From positions 2,490 through 66,489 of IMG/VR virus record IMGVR_UViG_3300031965_000019: a stretch of DNA of 64,000 nt; one strand, given 5' to 3'. Positions 13,142 through 56,980 of the stretch are shown here, piece by piece. The stretch comes from a virus. The position numbers and the translations under genes were made by a program. Each line of letters opens with the position of its first letter. Positions within the stretch are counted from its first letter, which is position 1. Below the pieces are notes generated by a model. The model was not told where the DNA came from. It saw nothing but the letters and a program-made list of their open reading frames with translations, and ran no database searches.

Positions 13142-14896
13142 TTAGGCGACATCTCCGTACTTGCCGTTTTTGACATCGGTGAGGACCGCCACGTAGTCCG
13201 CATCCTTCCCCTCGGCGATGAATCCCTCGCAGATCACCCGTGCCTTATCAGCACAAGCCTTGCCGTACTGCTCTTTCTGTAGCCGGTTTCCCGGGGCGGT
13301 CGGTTCGATCATGCCCGCGATCGGATCGTAAGGCAGATCGATCGTCGGCATCCGCTGATAGTGCTCGGTGATTGCCGCGATCGCGTCTGTGAACTGATCG
13401 TTGTTCACCTTGCCGGCGTTCAGACGCTCCATTTCCTTGTCAGGATCGAGCGCGTAGCCGTCCATCTGGAGCGCCTGCAGGTTTTGACGACGCTCGGCAT
13501 TGATCCTGGCATAGCGTTCGACCTGCAACTCTTTCTTGAGCTGCGCGGACTCATCGGAGACACGCCGCAAGTCGGCCTGGACCCGCTGATACTGGATGCT
13601 CTCGGCATGGCTGACGCGGGCGTAAGGTGCCGAAGCGTTTTTCCCATTTCCCGTGGCGTCGTCGACCGAACCGCTGGCCACGCTCATCGAACCGTCGGCG
13701 GAACCCTCGCCGCTGGGGTTTTGTGGACTGCCGTCAACCGAACCGTCCGCCTGATAAGAGGCTGGCCCCGTGGTTTCGTCGCGATCGACTTTCTTGCCGC
13801 CGAGGTCGCCCTCGTTGGCCGTCTGATACGACCCCGCGGCGTTTTCGCCATCGGCTGCGTATCTGCGCTGCTTACGGCTCGCCATGTAGCAATCGATATC
13901 CTCGTCGCTCATGTCGTCCATCGCGGCGTAGGCTTTCTGCATCTTGGCCTTTTGCTCGTCGTCGGACGGGACCGCTGGCGGCGAAACGTCTCCATTGGCA
14001 GCGGGCGGACTTGGCGGGGCAGCGTCCGGGGGAGGTGAAACCGGGGGCGCTGGAGAAGATGGCGGCGCTTGCGGCGTAGGCGGTGCCGGTGCCGTCGGTG
14101 CCGGACTCGGAGTGTCTCCGGCGACTTCGCCACCCGCCAAGCCACCCGACTGTTGAGCCATAAGAGTGCGGATGAATTGGAACTCTTCGGTTTGCCCGAG
14201 TGAATTGCAAATCTGTTGAATGTCTTGCTCGGTCAACATGGTTGAATCCCCAGTGTTGGAGGGTGAATAGTTTTGCCTCTCGTCCTCACTGTCGGGGACG
14301 AAAACATTACTAGGGCCAGGCGCGACGGCCGCGTACTTTTCACGCAGCACGCGCCGACCGCCGCGATGTAAAGTGGCCGAGTACAAGAGCCCCAGATCGA
14401 GTCGAGGCGCTTCCGCGCCCAAGAGCGCAATCGGGTCCAGGAACATTTCCTCGTAACGGTCCTCAAGCCACAGCTCCGGACTGCGTCTTGGGTAACGCTT
14501 GAAGCGATTGACTTCGTCGCGAAAGATGTGAAAATCGGCCAGAATAGCCCAGCGTTGACGAGTGCCAGCCTGGCCAATCTTACCCATGCGAAACGGGCCA
14601 GCGAAACCAACCACCTCGGGCTCGGCGCCGCCGCCAGGCTTTTGCGTGTGGCCGATGCACACGGCCGCGAAGTCGCCGCTTTCAGCAATGCGACGATTGC
14701 ACCGATCGCAGACCAGCTTGAGCTCGTTGTACGTGAACTTGAGATCACGGCCGCGTCGGTCCTGCGTCTCATGCTCGGCGAACACGGGCACGTTGGCGAT
14801 GCTGACGAACTCGTCGTCGGGGAAGTCGCCTGGCTGCCGGACGTTTCCTTGCGGAACGGCCATCGCCATGTCGGAGGCTTGGACGGTCGCGACCAT
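13142..14896 (-). CDS. Mu gpI-like prohead protease with scaffold (584 aa)
   Basis: IGHT and RRSPEL putative catalytic motifs, ALLGAEAP; Pro-rich linker; coiled-coil C-terminus. Confidence 0.8.
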   Translation of the reverse strand: MVATVQASDMAMAVPQGNVRQPGDFPDDEFVSIANVPVFAEHETQDRRGRDLKFTYNELKLVCDRCNRRIAESGDFAAVCIGHTQKPGGGAEPEVVGFAGPFRMGKIGQAGTRQRWAILADFHIFRDEVNRFKRYPRRSPELWLEDRYEEMFLDPIALLGAEAPRLDLGLLYSATLHRGGRRVLREKYAAVAPGPSNVFVPDSEDERQNYSPSNTGDSTMLTEQDIQQICNSLGQTEEFQFIRTLMAQQSGGLAGGEVAGDTPSPAPTAPAPPTPQAPPSSPAPPVSPPPDAAPPSPPAANGDVSPPAVPSDDEQKAKMQKAYAAMDDMSDEDIDCYMASRKQRRYAADGENAAGSYQTANEGDLGGKKVDRDETTGPASYQADGSVDGSPQNPSGEGSADGSMSVASGSVDDATGNGKNASAPYARVSHAESIQYQRVQADLRRVSDESAQLKKELQVERYARINAERRQNLQALQMDGYALDPDKEMERLNAGKVNNDQFTDAIAAITEHYQRMPTIDLPYDPIAGMIEPTAPGNRLQKEQYGKACADKARVICEGFIAEGKDADYVAVLTDVKNGKYGDVA

Positions 14897-15302: not shown

Positions 15303-18032
15303 CTAGACCATTTGCGCCATATAGGCTTCCAGGACTTGCTTGCGGAAGAACATTTCACGCTGGGCGCCGGTGAGCCGGCTCGGCCGCTTTGGTTTTGCGG
15401 CTTGCTGCCCCACATGGGACGGGTCGACGTCTTTGAACAGGCCGCGCTGGCCAGGCAGCGATGCCGCCTGCTTGGCCGGATGCTCCCAGCCGGTGAAGTC
15501 GATCGCCGCGAACTGACCGCCGCTGTCGCGATTGTGCTTGGATTCGCTCCAATCGGTGCCGTAGTCAATCCGATCATCGGCAGGATCGAACGTACCGCGG
15601 TTGCCGGTGGCGGATTTTATCTGGTTCGGATTGAAGGCAATCCAGACACGGCCGTAGTCACCTTCACGTTCAAGTCCAAGGCGGACGCTTCCAGCAACGT
15701 CCCCAGCCATGTGAGTTATTCCATCATATCCAGCAGAAGCGATGAGATCATTTACATGCGACTTAGTGCGGTAGTTTAAGAATAACCTCCAAAGATCTCG
15801 ATGCTTCATTCCATCATCATCTTTGTAGTAAAGAGAAACTGTGTCGTGGATTTCCTCGGATTCACGCTCTGAGATTAGTCGCGACTCGACAGTGCGAGAC
15901 ACAATCCTCTGGGCCTCTTCAAGCTCGATCGGCGAATCGTAGTCGAACGGCCTGCGGATATTGAGATAAACGGCGCGGATATGGCTGTCATCGGATGCGT
16001 ACATTGACGCGATTTCTTTGTTCTCGGCAAAATAAAACCCTTTGCCGACCATAGTCGCCCCTGATTTCTCAGGATCGAAGGCATCGAAATCTGCATCAGT
16101 GCCGTGGTAAACAACCTTGCCATCGCCGTGAGTTTCTTGTGGCTCACCAGTTCCCTTGTTGACCACCTTGCTAGAATTTGCCCGATCATTCTCCCAGTCA
16201 CCAAACCACGCCTTGAACTCTGGTGTCTCAGTCTGCTTGGAGCGGCTCTCAGTGGCCACCGCTGTTTCGCCGACGTCGGTGAACTTACCGTCATCGGATC
16301 GCGGGTGTTCCTCTTCTCGAAACGCCGCGTAACTCGCCAGCCGCTTGCGGTCGCTGTTCTCGCTCGGGAGTCCGTTGGCGACATACTCGGCTTGCTCCGC
16401 GGCCTCTGCCGGCGCGGAAGGCGTCGGCTCCGCAGACTGTCCATTCGAGCTCGGATCGCCGAACTGGCCAATGTTCGCCCCGGGGACCGGGCCCATCGCG
16501 CCCATCTGTGCCGATTGCGCCGCGGCCTGCTGCTCTTTCATCTGCTCGAATTTGTCCAGGACTTCGGAATCCGGCTCTGGCGCCGGCGCGCCTATGAGAT
16601 CGCGAAGCTGCTTGGCGTCCAGTCGCAGGCCCATCTCGTAAGCCTTCAAAAACGCCTCGATCATCGACTCCGCGTCGGGCTCGCGAGTGTGAATCACGAA
16701 CCTGAAGTCGACGTTGGCCATCCGCGGCAGGGCGAGCTTCTTAATCGGACTCAACAGGTCCGTAGTAATCGTTTCCTCCAGCAGCATGGAGTCGTAACGC
16801 ACGATCTGCATGAAGACATCCATTTGAACGTCGGCGAGATTCGAGCCGAGGCCCGTGGCCGACGCTTCCGTGGTGAGCGTCTGGCCGAGGATGTAGCGCT
16901 TGATCGAGTGGCCGAAGTATTCGGTAATGATGCTTTTGAGGGACTCGACTCCGCCCATGCCTGGCTCGATTCGCTCCACACCGTAGACCTGACCGTCCTC
17001 GCCCATCGGTCGCGGGACCATGATGATGTTGCGGCCGTTTTCGATTTTTTCCTCGGCGGCCTTGCGCATTTCGGCTTTGGCCGTCGCATTGCCCATTGGG
17101 TAATACCAGATTTCGATGCCCATTGCCGAGCGTTCCATGAAATCCATCATATTGGCGAGCGTCTCTTGCTTCTGGTACCAAGTCCAGTAAATGACGGAAC
17201 GAATACCGACTCCGTGAATCCGGCCGGCGTTAGCCGGATCGTGATAGTCGCCGTCCTCGATCCGGTGCTTGTGGACCGCCAGCAGAATCGACTCCCAAGT
17301 GTCCAGAAAATACGCCAGTCCGTGATCGGTCGCTTCCAACTTGCGGACCCGTTCCACCGTGCCTCGGAAGCCACGCGAGCGATAGTGGTCCTGCATCTGA
17401 CTCAACTGGTTGACGCCCGTGTAGATGCCCGCGCCGACTCGAATCCCGATCTGATCGGGCCGGTGGTCGTTCATGCCGTCGTCGTACCGAAACACGATCT
17501 TGTCGCCGTTCACTGGCAGCCACCGCAACGGCATGGGACGCATCTTGCCCGCGACTAAGCGGTAGCCCCACTTGTGCTGGATGCCGTATTTTCCGTACCA
17601 CGTCGCGTGCAGTAGATTCTCACGATACTGCATAAAGCGGGGAATCTTTTCCAGGATTTTCGTGAGGATCTGTGCCGCCTCTTTCTGCTCGGCATTGTTC
17701 GCGTCCTCGGGCTCGACGCTCCAATCCAAGAGTGCCACGGCCCGCTGCCGCATTTCGACGCACTCCATGATCGTGACGTCGTTACGCATGAATTTGGCAT
17801 TGTCGAAGCTGTCCTGGATTGCCTCGTCGCTGGCGCGATAGACTTTGGCCTGCGAGCCGGCAATGCCCTGAAAAGTGAAGGCGTGGCGCAATAGGTAGTC
17901 GCCCAGATTGGGCGGCATTCCGTCGATGCCGGATGCCGGATCGTCGCCCGCGTCAAACCGCTCGTCGCCTATTTTCAGCGGATCGCGACGCATGGAATCG
18001 CCAAGATCAATGACTGTGCCTGTAGCGGCCAT
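15303..18032 (-). CDS. Portal protein (DUF935 / Mu gp29-like) fused to C-terminal ADP-ribosyltransferase-like domain (909 aa)
   Basis: Start MAATGTVID at 18032 with AGGGGG SD; portal region …ILGQTLTT…; then EFKAWFGDW…YHGT…GFYF…QIKSATGNRGTFDP. Confidence 0.85.
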   Translation of the reverse strand: MAATGTVIDLGDSMRRDPLKIGDERFDAGDDPASGIDGMPPNLGDYLLRHAFTFQGIAGSQAKVYRASDEAIQDSFDNAKFMRNDVTIMECVEMRQRAVALLDWSVEPEDANNAEQKEAAQILTKILEKIPRFMQYRENLLHATWYGKYGIQHKWGYRLVAGKMRPMPLRWLPVNGDKIVFRYDDGMNDHRPDQIGIRVGAGIYTGVNQLSQMQDHYRSRGFRGTVERVRKLEATDHGLAYFLDTWESILLAVHKHRIEDGDYHDPANAGRIHGVGIRSVIYWTWYQKQETLANMMDFMERSAMGIEIWYYPMGNATAKAEMRKAAEEKIENGRNIIMVPRPMGEDGQVYGVERIEPGMGGVESLKSIITEYFGHSIKRYILGQTLTTEASATGLGSNLADVQMDVFMQIVRYDSMLLEETITTDLLSPIKKLALPRMANVDFRFVIHTREPDAESMIEAFLKAYEMGLRLDAKQLRDLIGAPAPEPDSEVLDKFEQMKEQQAAAQSAQMGAMGPVPGANIGQFGDPSSNGQSAEPTPSAPAEAAEQAEYVANGLPSENSDRKRLASYAAFREEEHPRSDDGKFTDVGETAVATESRSKQTETPEFKAWFGDWENDRANSSKVVNKGTGEPQETHGDGKVVYHGTDADFDAFDPEKSGATMVGKGFYFAENKEIASMYASDDSHIRAVYLNIRRPFDYDSPIELEEAQRIVSRTVESRLISERESEEIHDTVSLYYKDDDGMKHRDLWRLFLNYRTKSHVNDLIASAGYDGITHMAGDVAGSVRLGLEREGDYGRVWIAFNPNQIKSATGNRGTFDPADDRIDYGTDWSESKHNRDSGGQFAAIDFTGWEHPAKQAASLPGQRGLFKDVDPSHVGQQAAKPKRPSRLTGAQREMFFRKQVLEAYMAQMV

Positions 18033-18043
18033 CGGCTGACCCC

Positions 18044-19222
18044 CTATCGAAAGTTGAACGGGCTCGGTTTCATGGTCGCGCCGCTCGTAAGCACCTTGAT
18101 TTTTCCAGTGCTCACGCTCTTGACCCGGACGGTTCGCTGAACATACATTTCGCCTTCGGCCGTCATAGTAGCCTTGCGCGGGACGTAGTTGTTTCTGACG
18201 CCGACGAGCTGATAATCGTGCTGGTGGCCAGAAATCGTGCCGCGAATTCTCAGGCTGTCCCACACCCAGCCGCCCTTGGACGCCGCGGCGTGTAGTCCAA
18301 GAAACTTCTGGGGTCGTACATTCGCATAGCTGTAGAGGCTCCCCGCGACTCCGTAGACCATGTGCGACTGAAACCGCACGTAGAGCGTCCATGTGTCGAC
18401 GTCATAGGAATAGCTGTAGACGTTGGACGATTGGGGCGTGCGGACCATTTCCTTGGTGACAATCGGATGCGTCGCCGGGAACCTGCGCCGCGAGCCGTCG
18501 CCAAAGTCGACGTCGATCACCTTGCGTGGCTGACCGCGTCCGGTGGTTTTCGAGACACCGCCAGGATAGGTCGATTCGTCGACGGTTGTCGTGGGCTCGT
18601 CGCTCAGCCCTCGAGCCTTGGCAGCGGCCCCAGCCGCTCCCACCTTTCCGGCCTGTGGTTTTACTTCGTACCCGTGGGTTTCGAGGAATTCTTTGGCGGC
18701 TTCGATCTGGTCGGCGACTTCACGCGCGGACCGATTGGCGATCGGCTTTTGCAGACGAGACGCCTTGCGGCCGCGGGTCGAGAGCATATCTGGCGCTACC
18801 GCGTCCAGGAAATCCAACGCCGTCTGGATATCGCCACCGAGGCCGCTCTTGCGGGCCCTGCCGCCACTGGTCACCAGCGACCGGATGAGGGAGCCCACCG
18901 GACCCATCGTCGAGAGAAACTCGCCCAACAGTTGCGCAGTCGATCCCCCGAGGCGGGCGTAACGCTCCACTTCGCGTACCATGCGACCGAAGTCATTCGA
19001 CAACAGCGAGTTCCTCACCGTGTCGTTCAACCCGCCGCGTCCCCAAGACGTGAGGGCGTCGCGGATGGCCGTGCCGGCGCTGGCGTGTTTCCCAGAATTC
19101 AGCGCGGAGCGGACCTGGCCGATGGCTTTGGCCGCGGTCGTGCGTTGCCACTCGCGACGGGCCGATCTCTGGACGGTACGTGACGCGAGGCGAAACAACG
19201 GATTGATGTGAAAGTTGCCCAT
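18044..19222 (-). CDS. KTSC-domain protein (392 aa)
   Basis: SSNVYSYSYD…TLYVRF…YSYANV…AASKGGWVW KTSC pattern near C-terminus. Confidence 0.7.
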   Translation of the reverse strand: MGNFHINPLFRLASRTVQRSARREWQRTTAAKAIGQVRSALNSGKHASAGTAIRDALTSWGRGGLNDTVRNSLLSNDFGRMVREVERYARLGGSTAQLLGEFLSTMGPVGSLIRSLVTSGGRARKSGLGGDIQTALDFLDAVAPDMLSTRGRKASRLQKPIANRSAREVADQIEAAKEFLETHGYEVKPQAGKVGAAGAAAKARGLSDEPTTTVDESTYPGGVSKTTGRGQPRKVIDVDFGDGSRRRFPATHPIVTKEMVRTPQSSNVYSYSYDVDTWTLYVRFQSHMVYGVAGSLYSYANVRPQKFLGLHAAASKGGWVWDSLRIRGTISGHQHDYQLVGVRNNYVPRKATMTAEGEMYVQRTVRVKSVSTGKIKVLTSGATMKPSPFNFR

Positions 19223-30416: not shown

Positions 30417-30839
30417 TTAGCGGCGGCCCGCGCCTTTCCAGTTCGCGGGAGCCCAAACAAATGTGTAGTACGTTCTACCGCCAACGCTGTAGGCGGCAGC
30501 GCCGGCCCAGTAAGCTCTTGTGTCCGTTCCTGGATTGCCCCTCCCATTTGGGAAGTGGTAGCACGTCGAGATTCTGCGCCCATAAGGATCGTTGCCGTGT
30601 TGATAACCGACGCCTTCCCACGTTCCCGAGAGCATCCCGCCAACGTGGCCCATGCGTCCACGCGCGGCTTGCATTCTCACCGAACGATCGGCTACGGCCA
30701 TGAGTGCGGAGTGATATCGCACCGGCTGATAGCCGCTCTGGACCCGACGCAAATTGACCGCGTTTAACACGTGGATATCGGCCCAGCACTGCGCGGCCAG
30801 CAGCAGCACGAGAGCCAGCGATAGGATAGGTCGGGTCAC
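30417..30839 (-). CDS. Secreted CAP/SCP-domain protein
   Basis: Signal peptide; LNAVNLRR…L..VA…GRMGH CAP pattern. Confidence 0.75.
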   Translation of the reverse strand: MTRPILSLALVLLLAAQCWADIHVLNAVNLRRVQSGYQPVRYHSALMAVADRSVRMQAARGRMGHVGGMLSGTWEGVGYQHGNDPYGRRISTCYHFPNGRGNPGTDTRAYWAGAAAYSVGGRTYYTFVWAPANWKGAGRR

Positions 30840-31855
30840 TGGTCGCTTACTCTTTCCGGGTTTAACGTCCCCACCAGCCGCGCGCCGTCGGTCAGACCTG
30901 TGAGCTGTGCCGCGAACGATTGGGAAGCTATTGCAGGCGACTCCTCGCCGCCCAGCAATGAATCGTTGAGGTACTCGTAGAACAGGCGCTTGTAGTCGAT
31001 AAAGCCGCGCCCCGACACAAAGTCGTATCCAGGCTGCCCCAAATCTACCACATAGGTCTGTAGCTTTAGCAGCGCCTCATCATTCACCGACACGCGCTTG
31101 CCGAAGAACTTCTTCTCGCCAGCTGTCAGCAGCGAGCCGGTTCCAGCAACATGCGGACACGCGAACGACGTGCCATCCATAAGCTGCACCTGACCGTTAG
31201 GAAGAATGCACGGCACGGCCACGCCTGGGGCGACAAGATCAATACCTTCTCCGCCGTTGGAAAATCTCGCCACATTGAATTGTTCATCCATTGCGCCGGG
31301 AGCGACCGCGTAAAATGCCGGGTAGCTAACACTGCGTCGACGACCCTCATTGCCGCTCGCAAACACGCACGGCACGTTGTAGTCCTTAGCGTACTCAACG
31401 GCTTTCTCCAGTTCCTTGCTCGCGAATCGACCGCCGAACGCTCCGCTGATCCAGGTCGCGCCGTTGTCGACCGCGTAGCGAATCCCGGTAGCGATCCACT
31501 CGTTCGCGCCAGAGCCGCCATCGTCCAAGACTTTCACCGGCATGATGCTAGCCTGGGGATTGACCCCGTAGGTCTCGCCGGCTGCTACGCCAGCGGTTGC
31601 CGTGCCGTGGAAGTTACGGTCTCCCCAATCGTCGTCGTGGGGGATAAACGATCTCCCCTTGACGATACGTCCCGCAAACTCCGGGTGATTCTTGGTGATT
31701 CCGGTGTCGAGATTAGCGATTGTTTCACCGACGCCGCCAACGCGATCTTGGATGGCGCGGAGATTGAACAGTCTGAGATGCCAAGGCACTGTTTGAGCGA
31801 ATGCGTCGACTGCCGGCGACGCGAAGCCGACCCAGGGAATTCTTACGTCGTTCAT
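30836..31855 (-). CDS. Subtilisin-like S8 serine peptidase (339 aa)
   Basis: Catalytic triad motifs LDTGI, HGTATAG, GTSFACP; ASGN oxyanion motif. Confidence 0.92.
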   Translation of the reverse strand: MNDVRIPWVGFASPAVDAFAQTVPWHLRLFNLRAIQDRVGGVGETIANLDTGITKNHPEFAGRIVKGRSFIPHDDDWGDRNFHGTATAGVAAGETYGVNPQASIMPVKVLDDGGSGANEWIATGIRYAVDNGATWISGAFGGRFASKELEKAVEYAKDYNVPCVFASGNEGRRRSVSYPAFYAVAPGAMDEQFNVARFSNGGEGIDLVAPGVAVPCILPNGQVQLMDGTSFACPHVAGTGSLLTAGEKKFFGKRVSVNDEALLKLQTYVVDLGQPGYDFVSGRGFIDYKRLFYEYLNDSLLGGEESPAIASQSFAAQLTGLTDGARLVGTLNPERVSDQ

Positions 31856-47676: not shown

Positions 47677-48525
47677 TCAAACTCCCGCCTCGGGGGCCCG
47701 CGGATCGTGCTGATTGCATTTCGCCCAAAACTTCCTCTCGTCCGCGCGCATCAACAGCAGGTGAGCAATGACGTCGTCAGTCGGGACCATGCTGCCGGCG
47801 TAAGTGCCACGATAGAATCCGATCGGGTGCATACACAGCGCGGCAAGGATTTTCGTATTGTCATGGCCAAGCATTGGGGCAATGGCGAGCGTCGGCCGGC
47901 ACTTGCGGAAGAAGTAGATGATCTTTGATCGCTTGCTGGTTTCCAGGAACGTGCCTGTCAGCAGGTAATAGCGGAAGGCACGGGAAGTGACCAAACCCTT
48001 GAGGCTGGCAAGTGCAGTGAACTCTGCCCTGACGCTCCAGGCTTGGGACGCACAGAGGGTATCTAGCACTATACTCGCCCGCTGCGACGACGTGCGATTC
48101 GGGATGGCCATGCACTTTACTTGACCATCCTCGCGATAGACGATGATCTGCCGCCCACGCTCGCGGTCGATCCACTGATTGACGATCTCGCAGTTATCGT
48201 GATCGACAGGATCGTCTTTTTTGGAAAGCGATGCGCCGTTGAGAGTGGCGTAGAGCGGGTGCCTCGGCTCGATTTCGAGACTCACGTCAACCATCGGCAT
48301 GGGGTAGCCGGCCCAATTTCCGCCCTCGCCGGCCAGTGTGACGATCCTCTGTCGAATGTTTTCCCAACCGTCGTCGAGGCCCTCCAGTAGCGTGTGCTGA
48401 GACTCCAAGTCGCCACACTTCTCGATGCGCCGAGCCAATCGCGCCAGCGACTTGAGTTCTCGCTCCCGCTTTTTGTTGGCCAGCTTTTTTTTGGTGGCAT
48501 TACCTGCCATTTCAACCTCCAGCAC
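47677..48525 (-). CDS. Hypothetical phage protein (~280 aa)
   Basis: Long ORF with conserved-looking LCMHPIGFY…D..IAHLL C-terminus. Confidence 0.65.
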   Translation of the reverse strand: MLEVEMAGNATKKKLANKKRERELKSLARLARRIEKCGDLESQHTLLEGLDDGWENIRQRIVTLAGEGGNWAGYPMPMVDVSLEIEPRHPLYATLNGASLSKKDDPVDHDNCEIVNQWIDRERGRQIIVYREDGQVKCMAIPNRTSSQRASIVLDTLCASQAWSVRAEFTALASLKGLVTSRAFRYYLLTGTFLETSKRSKIIYFFRKCRPTLAIAPMLGHDNTKILAALCMHPIGFYRGTYAGSMVPTDDVIAHLLLMRADERKFWAKCNQHDPRAPEAGV

Positions 48526-48907
48526 TTGGCGCGACGCCGGTCACGGACGTCGTCTTGGCGGATACTCTGCGACCATTGCCGCGTCCACGCTTTGATGGAG
48601 TAGGCGGCTTGGTGCCTGGCTTCGTTTCCTCATCCAAAGGAATCGGCGGCGCTGTCGGACCATCTGCAATCACGTACTCGCATGTCTTAGCGTCGAACCG
48701 TTTCACGCGGACGAATTCGCCGTCGACCTTGGCGAACAGCATGTAGCCCCGTTTGAGCATGTCTTTCACGACGCGCTCCGCCCGGGCCACTTCTAGCGGG
48801 TCTTTGCTGTCGAACGAAAAAACCATGTCGCCGGCTCCGCAGTTGAGGACCGACACGTTGGCGGGAATCGGTATCAGTGTCATGGGTTGTCCAGTGGTAA
48901 AACGCAA
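48512..48907 (-). CDS. Hypothetical protein (131 aa)
   Basis: LNCGAGD…APSAGG; upstream of the 280-aa gene. Confidence 0.6.
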   Translation of the reverse strand: MRFTTGQPMTLIPIPANVSVLNCGAGDMVFSFDSKDPLEVARAERVVKDMLKRGYMLFAKVDGEFVRVKRFDAKTCEYVIADGPTAPPIPLDEETKPGTKPPTPSKRGRGNGRRVSAKTTSVTGVAPSAGG

Positions 48908-48934: not shown

Positions 48935-49004
48935 AATGCTGTGCTGTGCATGGCAATGCGTTGCGACGCGCTGCTCAGCGATGCGTAGCACCGCCTCGCT
49001 TAGC
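48935..49004 (-). ncRNA. 5-nt periodic repeat unit F (14 pentamers), putative guide RNA
   Basis: GCTAA GCGAG GCGGT GCTAC GCATC GCTGA GCAGC GCGTC GCAAC GCATT GCCAT GCACA GCACA GCATT TT. Confidence 0.7.
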
Positions 49005-49011
49005 AGGATTA

Positions 49012-49731
49012 TCAAACAATCCACGCTGTAAACTTTCCAAACGGGCCGCCAGACGATTTCTTATTCCTGCCGCGCGGCTTGATGTAAGCCCTGAACGCGC
49101 CGAGACCAACACTCATTCCAGCGAATCGTAAAATGTCCTCGAAATAGTTTGAGATGACCCCCATGCAGTCCGTGTTACTCGTGTCGACGATCAACTTAAA
49201 ATTCGCCGCCCAAGTGTCGAAGCGAGGTCGGATTGCCACGATGGCCCCGCCCGTGTTGCCGTTGACCGCCCGCCGCATGTCAATCGCGTAGTCTTTTTCC
49301 GTGAGCGGTTTTCCCGTCTTGGGGTCGACCAACTTCGTGAGCGTCGTTTCATAGTCGAAGGTAAGACCGGCCTGGAGAATGGAAGCGGCGGAAGGGGCAT
49401 AGCGCCCCGACCCGACTTTCAGCTTCATAAGTTCGGCGGCGTCCATGATGCAGGAGAACAAGGCGACGTTTGGAAATGCACAGTGGCCGTCCCCGTCGAT
49501 GTAGGATTGTCGCCTGGCTACCGCCGCCGGCGCATTGTCTTGTTGCTTCTTGGTCCGTGTCGCGCCGCTTTCTTCCGGCTGCATATCGGCGGGATTCGCG
49601 CAAAGCAGCGGCGTGATTCCTTCCACATGGATTGTGAGCCGGTCCAGATTGAACAGCGTGGACTTCGCCGGCATGGCGGCTCCATTCTTTTCGATACGAT
49701 TGGTGGGCTTCGTTTTCGTTTTCGTGGCCAC
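49012..49731 (-). CDS. Stand-alone RAMP / Cas7-like protein (239 aa)
   Basis: IHVEGITPLL first strand, AFPNVALFSCIMDAA, IRPRFDTW, Gly-rich C-terminal AGMSVGLGAFR…GPFGKF; fold is inferred. Confidence 0.65.
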   Translation of the reverse strand: MATKTKTKPTNRIEKNGAAMPAKSTLFNLDRLTIHVEGITPLLCANPADMQPEESGATRTKKQQDNAPAAVARRQSYIDGDGHCAFPNVALFSCIMDAAELMKLKVGSGRYAPSAASILQAGLTFDYETTLTKLVDPKTGKPLTEKDYAIDMRRAVNGNTGGAIVAIRPRFDTWAANFKLIVDTSNTDCMGVISNYFEDILRFAGMSVGLGAFRAYIKPRGRNKKSSGGPFGKFTAWIV

Positions 49732-49753
49732 TTGGTTGTCTCCTATTAGTTAA

Positions 49754-49818
49754 AGGGCTGTGCTGTGCTTGGCCGAGCATCGCCATGCGAGGCCCGGTTT
49801 CGCGCAGCATTGCCTCGC
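49754..49818 (-). ncRNA. 5-nt periodic repeat unit E (13 pentamers)
   Basis: GCGAG GCAAT GCTGC GCGAA ACCGG GCCTC GCATG GCGAT GCTCG GCCAA GCACA GCACA GCCCT TT. Confidence 0.7.
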
Positions 49819-49842
49819 TCCTAAACGATGAATCGTAAAATC

Positions 49843-49892
49843 TGTGCTGTGGTTTGCGATGCGCCGCAATGCACCACACTGCTGGGCAAAGC
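49843..49892 (-). ncRNA. 5-nt periodic repeat unit D (10 pentamers)
   Basis: GCTTT GCCCA GCAGT GTGGT GCATT GCGGC GCATC GCAAA CCACA GCACA GATTTT. Confidence 0.65.
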
Positions 49893-49918
49893 AACGAAAC
49901 ATTTGTTCGATTAAATCC

Positions 49919-49978
49919 TGTGCTGTGCTGCGCTGCGCCACGCGTCGCGCTGCAAAGCGCTGCCACGCAGTGCCACGC
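49919..49978 (-). ncRNA. 5-nt periodic repeat unit C (12 pentamers)
   Basis: GCGTG GCACT GCGTG GCAGC GCTTT GCAGC GCGAC GCGTG GCGCA GCGCA GCACA GCACA GGATTT. Confidence 0.7.
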
Positions 49979-49989
49979 ACTGAAACATT

Positions 49990-50655
49990 TCACGCCACCA
50001 ACAGCACCTCCAAGGCGTGGTGTAATTTCTGGAGCCGGGCGAACAGCTTTTCGTCATCCGGCAGGGACTTCGATTCCAACAGCTTCAATAGCACGTTGAC
50101 GTGGTAGGAAGCGGTCTGCCCGCCGACGTGCTCATAAACATCCTCTTGTATCTTGGTGAGTTTCGTGCCGGCAAGGTGGGCCATCGGACGGCGGAGAACT
50201 ACGTCACCGCGGGAGCCTTTGGCGGAGCGACTGCCAACGATATCCGTCAGCTTCTCCCGCGTGACGTGAAGCGCCGTCGCCAATTTCTCCCGTGAGATGC
50301 GGAACTTCTTTCCGAGTGTCGCACAGCGGGCAATGTCCGCCGTCGTGAGCCTTCGGCCGTGGGTCGCGTTGCGGGCAATAGCGTCCAGCACCATTTCCGC
50401 TTCGTTCTTGAAATCGACCAGCATGACTTCCATCTCGGCATCATCGCCAGATACTTTGATATTGGCTCGACGCCGGTGGAAACCGTCAGTGAGCCGCAAG
50501 CTCTTGACATCGGCGACGCAGGGAGGCAGCGCCGCCCCAGCCCGAATTGATTCCGCCAGATCGTAGACGTGGCCATCGAACACGCAGTTGCGCGGGTAGA
50601 TGGAAAAATCTTCGATCAGTTCCGAGGCTTTCAGGACTTTAGTTTTGTGAGTCAT
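49990..50655 (-). CDS. ParB/Srx-like N-terminal domain protein (221 aa)
   Basis: SIYPR…LAESIRAG..LPP…LTDGFHRRRA; GAAAGGA SD before ATG 50655. Confidence 0.8.
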   Translation of the reverse strand: MTHKTKVLKASELIEDFSIYPRNCVFDGHVYDLAESIRAGAALPPCVADVKSLRLTDGFHRRRANIKVSGDDAEMEVMLVDFKNEAEMVLDAIARNATHGRRLTTADIARCATLGKKFRISREKLATALHVTREKLTDIVGSRSAKGSRGDVVLRRPMAHLAGTKLTKIQEDVYEHVGGQTASYHVNVLLKLLESKSLPDDEKLFARLQKLHHALEVLLVA

Positions 50656-50682
50656 GCGAATCCTTTCTGGTTGACAAAAATC

Positions 50683-50742
50683 TGTGCTTTGCTTTGCGCG
50701 GCGATGCATAGCCTGGCCCAGGCTCGCGGCGCCGTGCATTAC
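50683..50742 (-). ncRNA. 5-nt periodic repeat unit B (12 pentamers)
   Basis: GTAAT GCACG GCGCC GCGAG CCTGG GCCAG GCTAT GCATC GCCGC GCAAA GCAAA GCACA GATTTTT. Confidence 0.65.
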
Positions 50743-50775
50743 GGGGTCGCTACTTGATGAATTGGTTCATAAAAC

Positions 50776-50850
50776 TGTGCTGTGCTTTGCGTAACAACGC
50801 TTCGCCGCGCCCGACTAAGCTGGGCCCCGCGTCGCCGAGCCGCGCCTCGC
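50776..50850 (-). ncRNA. 5-nt periodic repeat unit A (15 pentamers)
   Basis: GCGAG GCGCG GCTCG GCGAC GCGGG GCCCA GCTTA GTCGG GCGCG GCGAA GCGTT GTTAC GCAAA GCACA GCACA GTTTT. Confidence 0.7.
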
Positions 50851-50858
50851 GGCGACAA

Positions 50859-52277
50859 CTAATAAATCTCCGCTCTCAGTTCACCGTCCGCCGCTTCCGC
50901 GCTGAGGATGATGATTTGCTTTTCATGCGCGAACTCAATAATCTCTTGCCGATTGGTTGGATCGAGGCTCTCGAAGTCCCCTTGGTCGACCACAACCACG
51001 CCGCCAGGGCCGACGCGCGAAGCCACCAGCCGGACCCCCAGCTTTACACGCTCGCCATGCGACAGCTCGCCGATCGGCTCGGCGCCGCGATCTGTGTTTA
51101 CACGCAGCAGGCCCTTCTCGACGAACAGACCGATGTCCAGTCCGGCCACGGCGTCGGAGAGTACGCTGTCGATACCCAGCGCGGCGGAGCGGAAGAGGTC
51201 TGCGATTTCGTCCGCGGCCTTCCCCTGCTGGAGTTCCTTGTCGGCCAGCGCCTTCGCCTTGTCGTACTCGCGGGCTTTCACGCCAGTTTCGACGGCGTCG
51301 CGGGCTGTATCGACACGCTGCGATGCCGCCAGAACTTCGCTGATCGTGATGGGCTGCGGTAGTTCAGTGGCGAGGATCTTCTCGAAACCATCGCGCATGG
51401 CGACAAGCCGTTTGTCGGCAAGCACAGCCGCCTCGGCCAATTTGTACTCGGTTGCCGCCTCGGACTGGATTCGCTGGGCTTCCGCCAGCGCCGCTTCCGC
51501 CCTATTCAGTGACTCGACTGCCGCAACCATACGGGAGTCCACTACTGCCGAATCTGCGGCTGGCAACTTCGCCAGCCTCGCCTCGGCTTCCTCGCGTTTG
51601 ACGGCTTGGTCCTGTTGGTCACGGTCCCGCTGTTCAATCGAAGATTGTTCGCGGATCGCCGCCTCCAACTGCGCCTGCAGCTTGGCCGAGTCCCGCTCTT
51701 GCGTGGGCCCAAACTCGGTGGCGTTGGCCATGAGGCCGGTCGACTTTTGATGGTGGGCCACGGCGCGGGCCGAATTGTCTCTAGCCCCTTGCTCAAGTTT
51801 GCGTTTCACGCGGCCAGCGTACTCGACCAGATCCTCGCAGGGCTCCACGGCCAGCGACTCGAAAACCGGCGTGGGAATCAGCCGCGGCGTGAACAGCGCC
51901 GCATCGCCCGTGACGCCCCGGATCGCCAGCAGACTCTTGATCCGTTTCGCGTCGGCCGAGGCCGGATCGTCGATGCCAGGGTCGATGAACGCGGCCAGGT
52001 CCAGCTTGCCCTCGATGCTCTGGACATCCAGGTGTCCGCTCTTCGTGATCCTAGGCCCGATGTTGATTCTCGCCCCCCAGCCCTCGGCCGTCCCCTTATC
52101 GGCCCCGTCATGGACGGTCGGACGCTCGTCTCCGCCCAATAGGCGCTTGACCGTGTCGAGCCCGTGAGACTTGCCAGTACCATTCGCTCCGCGGAGCAAA
52201 ATGAGCCCGCCCCCCTCGGGAGTCTGAAACTCGATCGACTTGACCGCTCCGGAATTTTCAATGGTTACAGTCGCCAT
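50859..52277 (-). CDS. SMC/Rad50-like ABC ATPase (472 aa)
   Basis: Walker A GANGTGKS, long coiled coil, LSHGE signature, VVVDQ Walker B. Confidence 0.85.
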   Translation of the reverse strand: MATVTIENSGAVKSIEFQTPEGGGLILLRGANGTGKSHGLDTVKRLLGGDERPTVHDGADKGTAEGWGARINIGPRITKSGHLDVQSIEGKLDLAAFIDPGIDDPASADAKRIKSLLAIRGVTGDAALFTPRLIPTPVFESLAVEPCEDLVEYAGRVKRKLEQGARDNSARAVAHHQKSTGLMANATEFGPTQERDSAKLQAQLEAAIREQSSIEQRDRDQQDQAVKREEAEARLAKLPAADSAVVDSRMVAAVESLNRAEAALAEAQRIQSEAATEYKLAEAAVLADKRLVAMRDGFEKILATELPQPITISEVLAASQRVDTARDAVETGVKAREYDKAKALADKELQQGKAADEIADLFRSAALGIDSVLSDAVAGLDIGLFVEKGLLRVNTDRGAEPIGELSHGERVKLGVRLVASRVGPGGVVVVDQGDFESLDPTNRQEIIEFAHEKQIIILSAEAADGELRAEIY

Positions 52278-52330: not shown

Positions 52331-53416
52331 CTACTTCGTTTTCCCCCACTCGGCCAACTTGACCGCGTGCTGGGCTATGGCGAGCCGGTCCGGCGCCACC
52401 GCTTCGTCCGCCTGCATCTCGCCGAGCACGACTTTCTTGTCGGCGACTGTGGGCGCGGCGGCAATCTCAGCTTCGTAGTCGCGAGTGATGCTAGGCTCTG
52501 CCTCCGCTTCGGGAGACGGCCACACCACCCCCAGAGCATCCAGCCGCTTGGCGGCCGCGTCCTGGATCATGTCGACCAGTTCGGTCGGCAGTTTCGTGCC
52601 CGGCGAGCACCACATACTCAGCAGCGCTTCAATGCCCGCCTCGTCGGCCATGACCATCTTGTCTAGGACTCCTTGCAGCCAATCTGGCAACGGCTCTCCG
52701 GTGCTTTCCGGTTTCTCGCCGTTGGCATCGTTCGTCTCCGGCTTGTTGAGGATCTTGTCGGCGAGCGTGTTGAGCGTCGTTGGGGCCACTGGTTCCGCCG
52801 GTGCGGAAGGCGCTGACATACGCTCCAGATCGTCGTCGGTCAGTACGCCCATAATCACTTCCGGGCAGTAGCGCCGAGCCCACTTGATCGCGCCGCTATA
52901 GCACAGCTTTTGGTCCGGGTCTTTCTTCCACATATCGTTCTCGGTCTTGGCCTGTTTGACCGACAATTCGATCGTGAGCACCTTTTCGGAGCCCTGGAAA
53001 GTTGCCGAGACGATGACCGTGCGCTCGTCGCCTTCGCCTTTGAAGTCGTAAGCCAGCCGTTCTTTCAGGCCAGCGCGGGAATTGACAACGGCCGCGACAA
53101 GTTTCCCCTGATAGCCGAGTTTCCCGTGAACGACATAGGACTCGTCGGCAACAGCAAAAGGATCAAACCCCCAGCGGTAGGCTTGGTTCACGACACGCAA
53201 ACAGTTGCCGACAGTTTCGGACTGATTGCTACCTTTCAGGTGTTTCGGGCAGAGCGAACTGCCGCCGATGGCTATTGCGACACGCTGCATTTGGTTGAAG
53301 GTTTCAGTCTGCAACAACGCGCTTTGAGCGCCGGCCGGTTGCATGGCCAACGGCGAGGGAGTGCTGGGGACAAGAGCGGAACTTACGGTCGGTTCTGGGG
53401 CGGTTACGGTACTCAT
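52331..53416 (-). CDS. recT: RecT-family single-strand annealing protein
   Basis: WGFDPFAVA…GKLGYQGKLV…WKKDPDQKL.Y…WARRYCPEVIMGV. Confidence 0.85.
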   Translation of the reverse strand: MSTVTAPEPTVSSALVPSTPSPLAMQPAGAQSALLQTETFNQMQRVAIAIGGSSLCPKHLKGSNQSETVGNCLRVVNQAYRWGFDPFAVADESYVVHGKLGYQGKLVAAVVNSRAGLKERLAYDFKGEGDERTVIVSATFQGSEKVLTIELSVKQAKTENDMWKKDPDQKLCYSGAIKWARRYCPEVIMGVLTDDDLERMSAPSAPAEPVAPTTLNTLADKILNKPETNDANGEKPESTGEPLPDWLQGVLDKMVMADEAGIEALLSMWCSPGTKLPTELVDMIQDAAAKRLDALGVVWPSPEAEAEPSITRDYEAEIAAAPTVADKKVVLGEMQADEAVAPDRLAIAQHAVKLAEWGKTK

Positions 53417-54618
53417 GCGAAGGTCTCCACGGGTAAGGTCGCGTCGCTGCCACGCTTGTTATTGCACGCGGCGCAGGCGAGCGCGATGTTGTTGGGATCG
53501 TTCGTCCCGCCCACGCTGAGCGGAATAACGTGTTCGAGCGTGGCCGTCTTGGCCGTCAATGTTGCTCCGCACCACTTGCAATGCGGGTCTTGCTCCAAGA
53601 GTTGCCGCTTGATCCAGCGCGGCAATTGCTTGCGTTCGGCAACGCAATAGTCCTCAGGTTCCGGCAGGGCCACGCCCTTGGGCGCCTTGCAGGTCCGCAG
53701 GGTGCGGAAAGATGTCGCCGCGACTTCATACGCCGTGCGGTCGGTGGTCTTGAGAGAGAGCCAGCGGGCGTCAGGCGTTACGCCATAAGTGCTGTCACCG
53801 ATCCATGCCTTGAACTGATTCTTGATCCGTTCGATACGGCGGTCGCAAGCCTTGGCGACGCGTTGGGCCCGTTCGTACATGGAAAGAATTGCATCGGCTT
53901 CGGCCGGCAATGCCGCTACCGTGCCGTCATCGTCTGGATGAAGTCTCGCGAGGGCCTTGGCTGTCGCCGCGGATTCGTCCATCGGCGGCTCGATCTGGTC
54001 CACGACGTAACCCCAAAACTCTTCCAGCGCCACCAACAGCGCGTCGATGAAGTGCTGGTTACGCTCGAAATAGAATTGCTCCAGGCTTTGGCTGCCGAAG
54101 AATACGGCGACCACACCCCAGTCCCAGCCGGTCACCAGTAACTCTTGCATCAGTTGCACTTGCACGGCCACCGGCGGCTCGTCGCGCCAATCGCCGCGGC
54201 CAAACTCGCTCCAAGTCTTGATACTGAATGAGCCAGGCCGATCACCAAACCGTTCCGAATGAAACACCACGGCATCCGGAGTGCAGTGAATGTGGCTGTG
54301 GTCTGGATGGCGCGCCAGCGTGTGCTCGGGCCAGCTCTCGATGCGACCGCCAAACTTGCTGGTGTAAAGCCGCTGGACCCATCCCTCCATGCCGAGCCCG
54401 ATCTGCTGCCGTTCGGTGGACACCGACAGTAGCGGTGGACGCACCTTGTCGGCCCAGACCTTCACGGGTGAACTGTAATCGCCGGCGAGGCCGAGGATGG
54501 CCGGGCTGTCGCTGCCACCGATACTCTTGGCCCGCTCTTCCAGCCAGTGCTGCCGGTCACGGCACTGGACCAACTCGGCCGTGGTGAGCTTGGCGATGGT
54601 GGCGAGGTCGTTTTTCAT
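53413..54618 (-). CDS. YqaJ / lambda-exonuclease fused to C-terminal HNH domain
   Basis: IGGSD…HCTPDA…SIKT…Q.QL; CKWC…LEHVIPLSVGGTND..NIALAC..CN. Confidence 0.88.
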   Translation of the reverse strand: MKNDLATIAKLTTAELVQCRDRQHWLEERAKSIGGSDSPAILGLAGDYSSPVKVWADKVRPPLLSVSTERQQIGLGMEGWVQRLYTSKFGGRIESWPEHTLARHPDHSHIHCTPDAVVFHSERFGDRPGSFSIKTWSEFGRGDWRDEPPVAVQVQLMQELLVTGWDWGVVAVFFGSQSLEQFYFERNQHFIDALLVALEEFWGYVVDQIEPPMDESAATAKALARLHPDDDGTVAALPAEADAILSMYERAQRVAKACDRRIERIKNQFKAWIGDSTYGVTPDARWLSLKTTDRTAYEVAATSFRTLRTCKAPKGVALPEPEDYCVAERKQLPRWIKRQLLEQDPHCKWCGATLTAKTATLEHVIPLSVGGTNDPNNIALACAACNNKRGSDATLPVETFA

Positions 54619-56816: not shown

Positions 56817-56908
56817 TGACCGCCACTCCAGGGGGGAACTGTGGGGACGGGGCCAAGAGGCCCCTTTTTTCTTGACGTCTGCCAATCCACCTGCGCTGTG
56901 GAACAAAG

Positions 56909-56980
56909 CTCCCGGGGCTGGACTCGAACCAGCAACCGATCGGTTAACAGCCGATTGCTCTACCATTGAGCTACCCGGGA
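56909..56980 (-). tRNA. tRNA-Asn(GTT), no encoded CCA
   Basis: TCCCGGG/CCCGGGA acceptor, GCTC/GAGC D-stem, ATCGG-CTGTTAA-CCGAT anticodon arm, GGTTCGAGTCC T-arm. Confidence 0.95.

Follow-up and report, generated by a model that had tools for sequence, protein, structure and literature searches.

What is encoded by six short blocks of DNA that repeat in steps of exactly five nucleotides (nt) and flank two small genes of a phage? The question is raised by a 1.9 kb locus within a window of 64,000 nt, i.e. positions 2,490 to 66,489 of the IMG/VR virus record IMGVR_UViG_3300031965_000019, whose phage nature is indicated by portal, terminase and tRNA genes. An original prediction, made from the letters alone, described a stand-alone RAMP/Cas7-like protein accompanied by 5-nt-periodic repeat RNAs and pointed to a phage system of similar logic, VIPR. 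That system exists (10.64898/2026.04.26.720920, 10.64898/2026.04.26.720927). Its parts are a RAMP protein that stands alone (Vipr), an accessory gene (vap) and vrRNAs built of 9–16 YNNGG repeats. The NN dinucleotides base-pair with DNA, and each repeat passes over one target base; most VIPR systems are phage-borne and aimed at competing elements (10.64898/2026.04.26.720920). We consider the locus very probably a phage-borne VIPR system of a variant class with GC-NNN repeats, which correspond to YNNNG in the frame used by the preprint. Its first guide, vr1, decodes under the published one-base-skip rule to a natural target in a sibling phage that is devoid of the cassette, in agreement with the gapped-guide logic proposed originally. 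This sibling, G001, is a 49-kb IMG/VR contig and a mosaic relative of the window phage.

Repeat units and the Vipr protein

The cassette comprises six repeat units and two genes, arranged as follows from its upstream to its downstream end.

48940..50862, minus strand: probable VIPR cassette (six vrRNA units, vap and vipr), 1.9 kb; blastn homology to G001 stops at 48939 and restarts at 50863
50862..50897, minus strand: diverged counterpart of the vr1 target in the carrier itself, formed by the 12 final codons of an SMC-like ATPase gene (EAADGELRAEIY); 18/24 against vr1
50851-50855, minus strand: possible 13th, degenerate vr1 repeat
50775..50850, minus strand: vr1, with 12 variable GC-NNN and 3 constant pentamers; decodes to the peptide EASDGPLRAEVY
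50682..50742, minus strand: vr2, with 9 variable and 3 constant pentamers, immediately upstream of vap
49990..50655, minus strand: vap-like accessory gene, 221 amino acids (aa), with a ParB/Noc/KorB-like N-terminal domain and a helix-turn-helix region
49918..49978, minus strand: vr3, vrRNA unit
49842..49892, minus strand: vr4, vrRNA unit
49758..49818, minus strand: vr5, vrRNA unit, ending 26 nt before the vipr start codon
49012..49731, minus strand: vipr, 239 aa, predicted single-RRM RAMP with thumb hairpin and Gly-rich loop
48939..49004, minus strand: vr6, with 11 variable and 2 constant pentamers, the final cassette element

All six blocks are non-coding, lie on the minus strand and keep GC in strict 5-nt phase over 10–15 pentamers per unit. 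Their existence is confirmed, but the counts given originally (76 pentamers, 69 of them GC-initial and 73 GY-initial) had to be lowered to 74 pentamers, with 67/74 starting with GC and 71/74 with GY. Per 50 nt, in-phase GC amounts to 9–10 out of 10 within the blocks, compared with at most 6 in the remainder of the 64 kb and at most 7 in 50 Markov-simulated windows. In each block, 7–12 variable pentamers precede a constant 3' part (GCAAA / GCACA / GCACA-G), after which a U-rich stretch begins. Variable parts are unlike one another across the window blocks (best pairwise identity 0.29–0.50), as had been noticed from the outset. We also compiled 273 variable pentamers from 34 units at five related loci, where position 1 is G in 93% and position 2 is C in 95% of cases, while the remaining three positions carry 0.01–0.07 bits each. 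Because these three positions are nearly free of information, the repeat unit is GC plus NNN. The base preceding GC is not near-fixed, and the initial parsing into a near-fixed NGC/NGY triplet plus a variable dinucleotide is therefore abandoned. The constant 3' part, continuing from the U-rich stretch into an AAUCA-like sequence, is kept in the 34 units; no Rfam family was matched by the units.

The 239-aa open reading frame is a real gene, with a GTG start at 49731, an AGGAG motif 8 nt upstream and a Lys-rich N-terminus kept in homologues. As a reference we used the SUSP1 locus taken from KT454805, which holds two genes with YNNGG arrays on both sides. BLASTP aligns the window protein with SUSP1 Vipr over the full length (24% identity, E 3e-5), and hhalign of a 61-sequence family profile against SUSP1 Vipr yields 99.1% probability and E 4.2e-19 over 179 columns. 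Both proteins match phrog_4652, and 526 clusters are related to the window protein at E<=1e-3. The AlphaFold (AF2) model has a predicted local distance difference test (pLDDT) score of 92, and the top 50 Foldseek matches in the PDB are all Cas7-type RAMPs (Csm3/Csm5 of 6IFN, type VII Cas7, type III-D, gRAMP); chain E of 6IFN, the Cas7 query of the VIPR discovery paper, is among the matches. Pfam, NCBIfam and PDB sequence searches did not recognize the protein, a tblastn search against GenBank phages came back empty, and its Vipr clade was not found in the public viral-contig and genome-contig collections searched. Judged by sequence and model, the 239-aa protein is a Vipr, that is, a Cas7/Csm3-like RAMP and a full-length homologue of SUSP1 Vipr, so that the fold anticipated by the original prediction is supported.

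Likeness to the Cas7/Csm3 backbone of class 1 systems extends to the RRM core, the thumb hairpin and the Gly-rich loop (Foldseek E 7e-6, TM ~0.5). Homology to SUSP1 Vipr suggests that polymerization on the guide with a fixed footprint per subunit would be shared as well. The footprint is, however, 5 nt instead of 6, sequence identity is only 8–15%, and the 64-kb window harbors no CRISPR array (25–40-nt repeats plus spacers), no Cas10, Cas5, Cas6 or Cas11, no adaptation genes (cas1/cas2) and no nuclease gene at the locus, as had been stated before.

Association of the gene with arrays is conserved. Homologues at 54–74% identity (n=26) are all metagenomic. The 221-aa partner gene is present in 5/5 clade loci inspected (L001-L003, L005, L006), and arrays of like units with the same 3' constant part occur in these loci and in the short contig L004. 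More distant Vipr homologues likewise adjoin 5-nt arrays, so homologues elsewhere keep the pentamer repeats whose absence would have counted against the original proposal. In L005, a canonical intrinsic terminator follows the last unit and thereby fixes the transcribed strand. A farmland-soil contig (L009:1093-1636) displays NGY-type units separated by GC-rich, structured-looking spacers of ~60–70 nt, which might represent the ribozyme-interspersed array type mentioned in the VIPR preprint.

Compared with the SUSP1 VIPR system of type II (Vipr, vap1 and four vrRNAs), the window locus shares a full-length homologous single-RRM RAMP in a two-gene phage locus, guide units located upstream, between and downstream of the genes, units of ~10–15 pentamers that close with a constant 3' end, a ratio of five guide bases to three target bases in which the skipped target base falls on the codon wobble position, and a target in a competing related element. 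It differs in its fixed part, reduced to GC by loss of the first G, with both the His and the Asp that read G1 replaced by Ala; in its 3' constant part, which stays in pentamer phase and is apparently unstructured where SUSP1 has a pseudoknot; in its accessory protein, which is ParB-like; and in two basic additions to the Vipr protein, one of 29 aa at the N-terminus and one of 10 aa inserted in the Gly-loop.

VIPR as a kind of system is already published in 2026 preprints, YNNNG-type repeats included: some VIPR loci with YNNNG, NNNGG or NNNNG repeats are recorded in the methods of one preprint (10.64898/2026.04.26.720920), and later ones describe satellite competition with solo guides and more non-canonical motifs (10.64898/2026.10.15.759431, 10.64898/2026.10.21.760802), among them GAC/NN, CAC/NN, WGT/NN and TGH/NN arrays (10.64898/2026.10.21.760802). 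The window locus resembles these cases in placing a Vipr-like fold beside 5-nt arrays that deviate from GGY, and it fits YNNNG. Their main texts give no target, decoding test or protein-side explanation, unlike the present analysis. VIPR experiments so far concern two closely related GGY-type systems; the window adds a compact, well-delimited GC-NNN example in which the altered repeat can be explained from the protein side.

The vr1 target in a sibling phage

Read as a string of codons, vr1 yields a 12-residue peptide. In the carrier's genome, this is matched best by the C-terminal end of the neighboring SMC-like ATPase, with 9/12 residues and 18/24 bases (75%). The nearest homologue of the window ATPase (75% identity) ends in the decoded peptide, 12/12. 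At the DNA level, vr1 matches the last 12 ATPase codons of G001 at 23/24 NN positions (z 9–10 compared with shuffled guides), and the skipped base lies on the codon wobble position. In rule controls only period-3 readings score, whereas NN, xxNN, xxxNN, xNNN and xxNNN stay at control level; the constant 3' pentamers of vr1 add nothing to the match. The carrier's ATPase allele equals the family consensus, while the targeted G001 allele has Ser and Pro variants. G001 has 122 nt in place of the 1.92-kb cassette (48940-50862), and no vipr, no vap and no 5-nt arrays were found in it. The vr1 site in G001 directly adjoins this empty cassette site. Since vr1 hits a VIPR-less sibling at the empty site and the carrier's own copy has diverged, the guide looks like a weapon against closely related competitors that lack VIPR. 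Most likely, the cassette would let its carrier silence VIPR-less siblings while sparing itself. The natural target illustrates this ecological logic, as the first guide points to the end of the gene beside the sibling's empty site.

By homology to SUSP1 VIPR, the six units and the genes would be transcribed jointly off the minus strand, and each RNA would be coated by Vipr protomers, one per pentamer. Each protomer would sequester the fixed G and C by means of a conserved Arg of the thumb, an aromatic residue and an Arg of the Gly-loop, and the variable bases would be displayed so that they can pair, in a 5-to-3 register, with double-stranded DNA. The resulting filament would then block transcription of the bound DNA.

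One might argue that vr1 resembles the ATPase gene by origin alone, the unit having been built from neighboring coding sequence with no current target. Indeed, 13 nt separate vr1 from the end of a gene of the very family that it matches (8 nt if the possible 13th repeat is counted), and the variable triplets of its units, when translated, give the 12 residues of the target. Yet it is the sibling's allele, with its Ser and Pro variants, that vr1 matches, and not the carrier's allele next to it. Codon positions one and two agree at 96%, as would be expected if the guide works. Moreover, we know of no process that inserts two fixed bases after every codon. Origin alone is thus a very unlikely account.

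Regulation of the phage's own genes, for instance in the timing of late or recombination genes, could alternatively be the main role of an otherwise functional VIPR system. The best own-genome match of vr1 is the adjacent ATPase gene end, and a second case comes from L005, a related Joint Genome Institute (JGI) phage contig. Here, a mismatch-tolerant scan placed vr4, the guide after vipr (L005:4904-4979), on the major capsid gene of the same contig (L005:5748-5780, motif YEYSGPQGGYL) with 20/22 matches, z 7.3 and the skip on wobble positions, which is above the 80% cut-off of the preprint. Both mismatches, however, are confined to one repeat and exchange one Ser codon family for the other (the guide reads TCN, the gene AGC), which looks like escape from self-targeting; the switch could reflect self-avoidance or self-regulation. 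In the window, the own site reaches 75% compared with 23/24 in the sibling phage, and no other self matches rise above shuffled controls. We therefore regard a mainly regulatory role as unlikely and favor targeting of VIPR-less siblings.

Searches for further targets were run at the peptide and DNA levels. Peptide-level scans of the proteins assembled for this study returned vr1 as the sole match. Exact pattern scans found nothing in public viral contigs for vr1, vr6, vr3, vr5 and L005 vr4, nothing in public metagenome contigs for L005 vr4, and nothing in public genome contigs for vr1 with a degenerate Leu position. The exact vr1 scans failed because the real site contains one mismatch (CTG for TTN). 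Three metagenome-contig matches from a 10-repeat vr1 scan (L015-L017) were rejected as chance hits, as they lie in ordinary bacterial DNA and do not extend into the flanking repeats.

Several observations weigh against a functional VIPR system aimed at competitors. Targets were found for only 1/6 window guides, and none for vr2–vr6 in the own genome, G001 or 58 loci with ATPase homologues. The vr1 target itself emerged from a post hoc peptide-level search, the DNA z-score and rule controls having been calculated later. L005 vr4 matches its own genome at 91%, which was not seen for the systems in the preprint and leaves room for own-gene regulation. No pseudoknot or shared fold was detected in the 3' part of the units (z-scores -2.75 to +0.16), unlike in SUSP1, and the cassette contains no sigma-70-like promoter or terminator consensus. 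Finally, the sequencing runs that contain this DNA are soil and sediment DNA metagenomes only.

The surroundings of the cassette were inspected as well. Just downstream, a 123-aa open reading frame (48512-48883, minus strand) shares its first codons with G001 14540-14622, where the counterpart stops after 9 codons; the 123-aa gene thus appears absent or broken in the VIPR-less G001. Upstream lies a recombination module (52331-54618, minus strand) that includes a fusion of a YqaJ-type exonuclease with an HNH nuclease domain (53413-54618) and RecT (52331-53416), and the SMC/RecF-like P-loop ATPase gene (50859-52277) comes after RecT. Long GGC-phased pentamer arrays are found at most 3 kb from an SMC-like ATPase homologue in two out of 58 other phage loci (L035:6628-7284 and L037:217-388), and VIPR arrays may accordingly recur near this gene.

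Reading of the first repeat base and a possible role of the third variable base

In the SUSP1 structure one protomer is bound per repeat, G1 being contacted by H17 and D177, G2 by R138 and W178, and Y3 by R179 and its neighbors, and R-loop formation proceeds from the 3' end (10.64898/2026.04.26.720927). Contact residues were mapped onto the window protein via an alignment of 177 sequences. The G2/Y3 contacts R138, W178 and R179 are kept as R168, F213 and R214, at columns that are conserved in 175/177 (R168), ~160/177 (aromatic at F213) and 173/177 (R214) sequences. Both G1 readers, in contrast, are Ala in the window Vipr (A45 and A212), in agreement with the absence of G1 from the window repeats. 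Ala at both positions marks a variant and does not exclude membership in VIPR. Across 13 loci, a small sample of ~9 independent lineages, the residue at the SUSP1 D177 position compares with the first repeat base as follows.

Asp (SUSP1, L008, L010, L011): first repeat base G in 55–90%
Ala or Ser (window, L001-L003, L005, L009, L012, L013): G in 22–39%, no preference
Asn (L014): first repeat base C in 92%

The first repeat base thus appears to track the residue at this position, which is consistent with the structure. This rule was not found in the main texts of the VIPR preprints; it is testable and could guide the design of Vipr/guide pairs that are orthogonal in specificity. The L014 arrays (L014:432-519 and 1093-1358) carry a fixed CGC triplet, with C first in 92% of 52 pentamers, beside the Asn-type Vipr, which suggests that the G1 pocket of this protein is specific for another base.

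The third variable base occupies the G1 slot. It equals the wobble base of the target in 8/12 repeats of vr1 and 6/11 repeats of L005 vr4, and the purine or pyrimidine class is kept at 11/11 two-fold degenerate codons. When translated, vr1 and L005 vr4 each give the exact target peptide. A contiguous triplet reading reaches 31/36 with z 12. A test for depletion of stop codons from the guide triplets of 33 guides gave a weak signal (4 observed, 7.1 expected, p 0.08), which is suggestive only. Vipr clades without G1 readers might therefore use three contiguous bases per pentamer, with GC flipped out, NNN paired and no base skipped, a reading that we put forward tentatively and with more doubt than belief. 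Alternatively, the guides may be produced by templated copying of coding DNA, one codon at a time, or they may derive from coding DNA of an allele not yet seen. If true, triplet reading would change the design of such guides.

The ParB-like partner and neighboring genes

The 221-aa protein encoded between vr2 and vr3 matches the ParB-like family phrog_1033 at 8e-7 and TIGR00180 at 3e-4, the latter below the cut-off, and its hidden Markov model scores remain under curated thresholds. Its AF2 model has a pLDDT of 92 and retrieves Noc, ParB-CDP and KorB in Foldseek at E ~1e-6. The protein resembles the cytidine triphosphate (CTP)-dependent clamps ParB, Noc and KorB in the fold of the ParB N-terminal domain and the helix-turn-helix, but its nucleotide-binding box reads G-F-H-R-R-R-A in place of the GERR-type CTP-binding box. 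It is not related to SUSP1 vap1. In L010, a 34%-identical homologue follows a GGY-type vipr, from which it follows that the ParB-like partner is a widespread accessory. We regard this partner as a probable DNA-binding accessory; where DNA is bound, it could load onto it or spread along it.

ParB proteins bind repeated DNA sites, and the ParB-like gene is located between the blocks; the repeat blocks might hence act as DNA, e.g. as centromere- or iteron-like loading sites for this protein, and not as guide RNAs. ParB sites are, however, normally palindromic and conserved, whereas the variable bases of the blocks are hypervariable among relatives, and in one block they spell out, in a 5-to-3 register, part of a rival's gene. 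Furthermore, it is a Gly-loop residue of the RAMP, not the ParB-like protein, that covaries with the fixed bases, and arrays of this kind also occur in SUSP1, whose accessory protein is unrelated. A role as DNA sites is hence extremely improbable, and we retain the assignment of the blocks as guide RNAs of a VIPR system. Pairing of a ParB-like gene with an RNA-guided system has a parallel in TIGR-TasA, which includes the ParB-like partner TasParB (PMC12045711); in both cases the ParB-like gene is in an operon with a nuclease-less RNA-guided DNA binder. ParB is unmentioned in the main texts of four VIPR-related preprints.

Elsewhere in the window, a 1029-aa protein (15303-18392, minus strand) combines a Mu-type portal domain (PF06074, 2.5e-40) with an ADP-ribosyltransferase domain (PF18760, 3.5e-26) in the manner of a 'polyvalent protein'. 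A subtilase-family serine protease gene (PF00082, 4e-33) is located at 30836-31855 on the minus strand, and the sole tRNA gene of the window, a tRNA-Asn (GTT), at 56908-56980 on the same strand.

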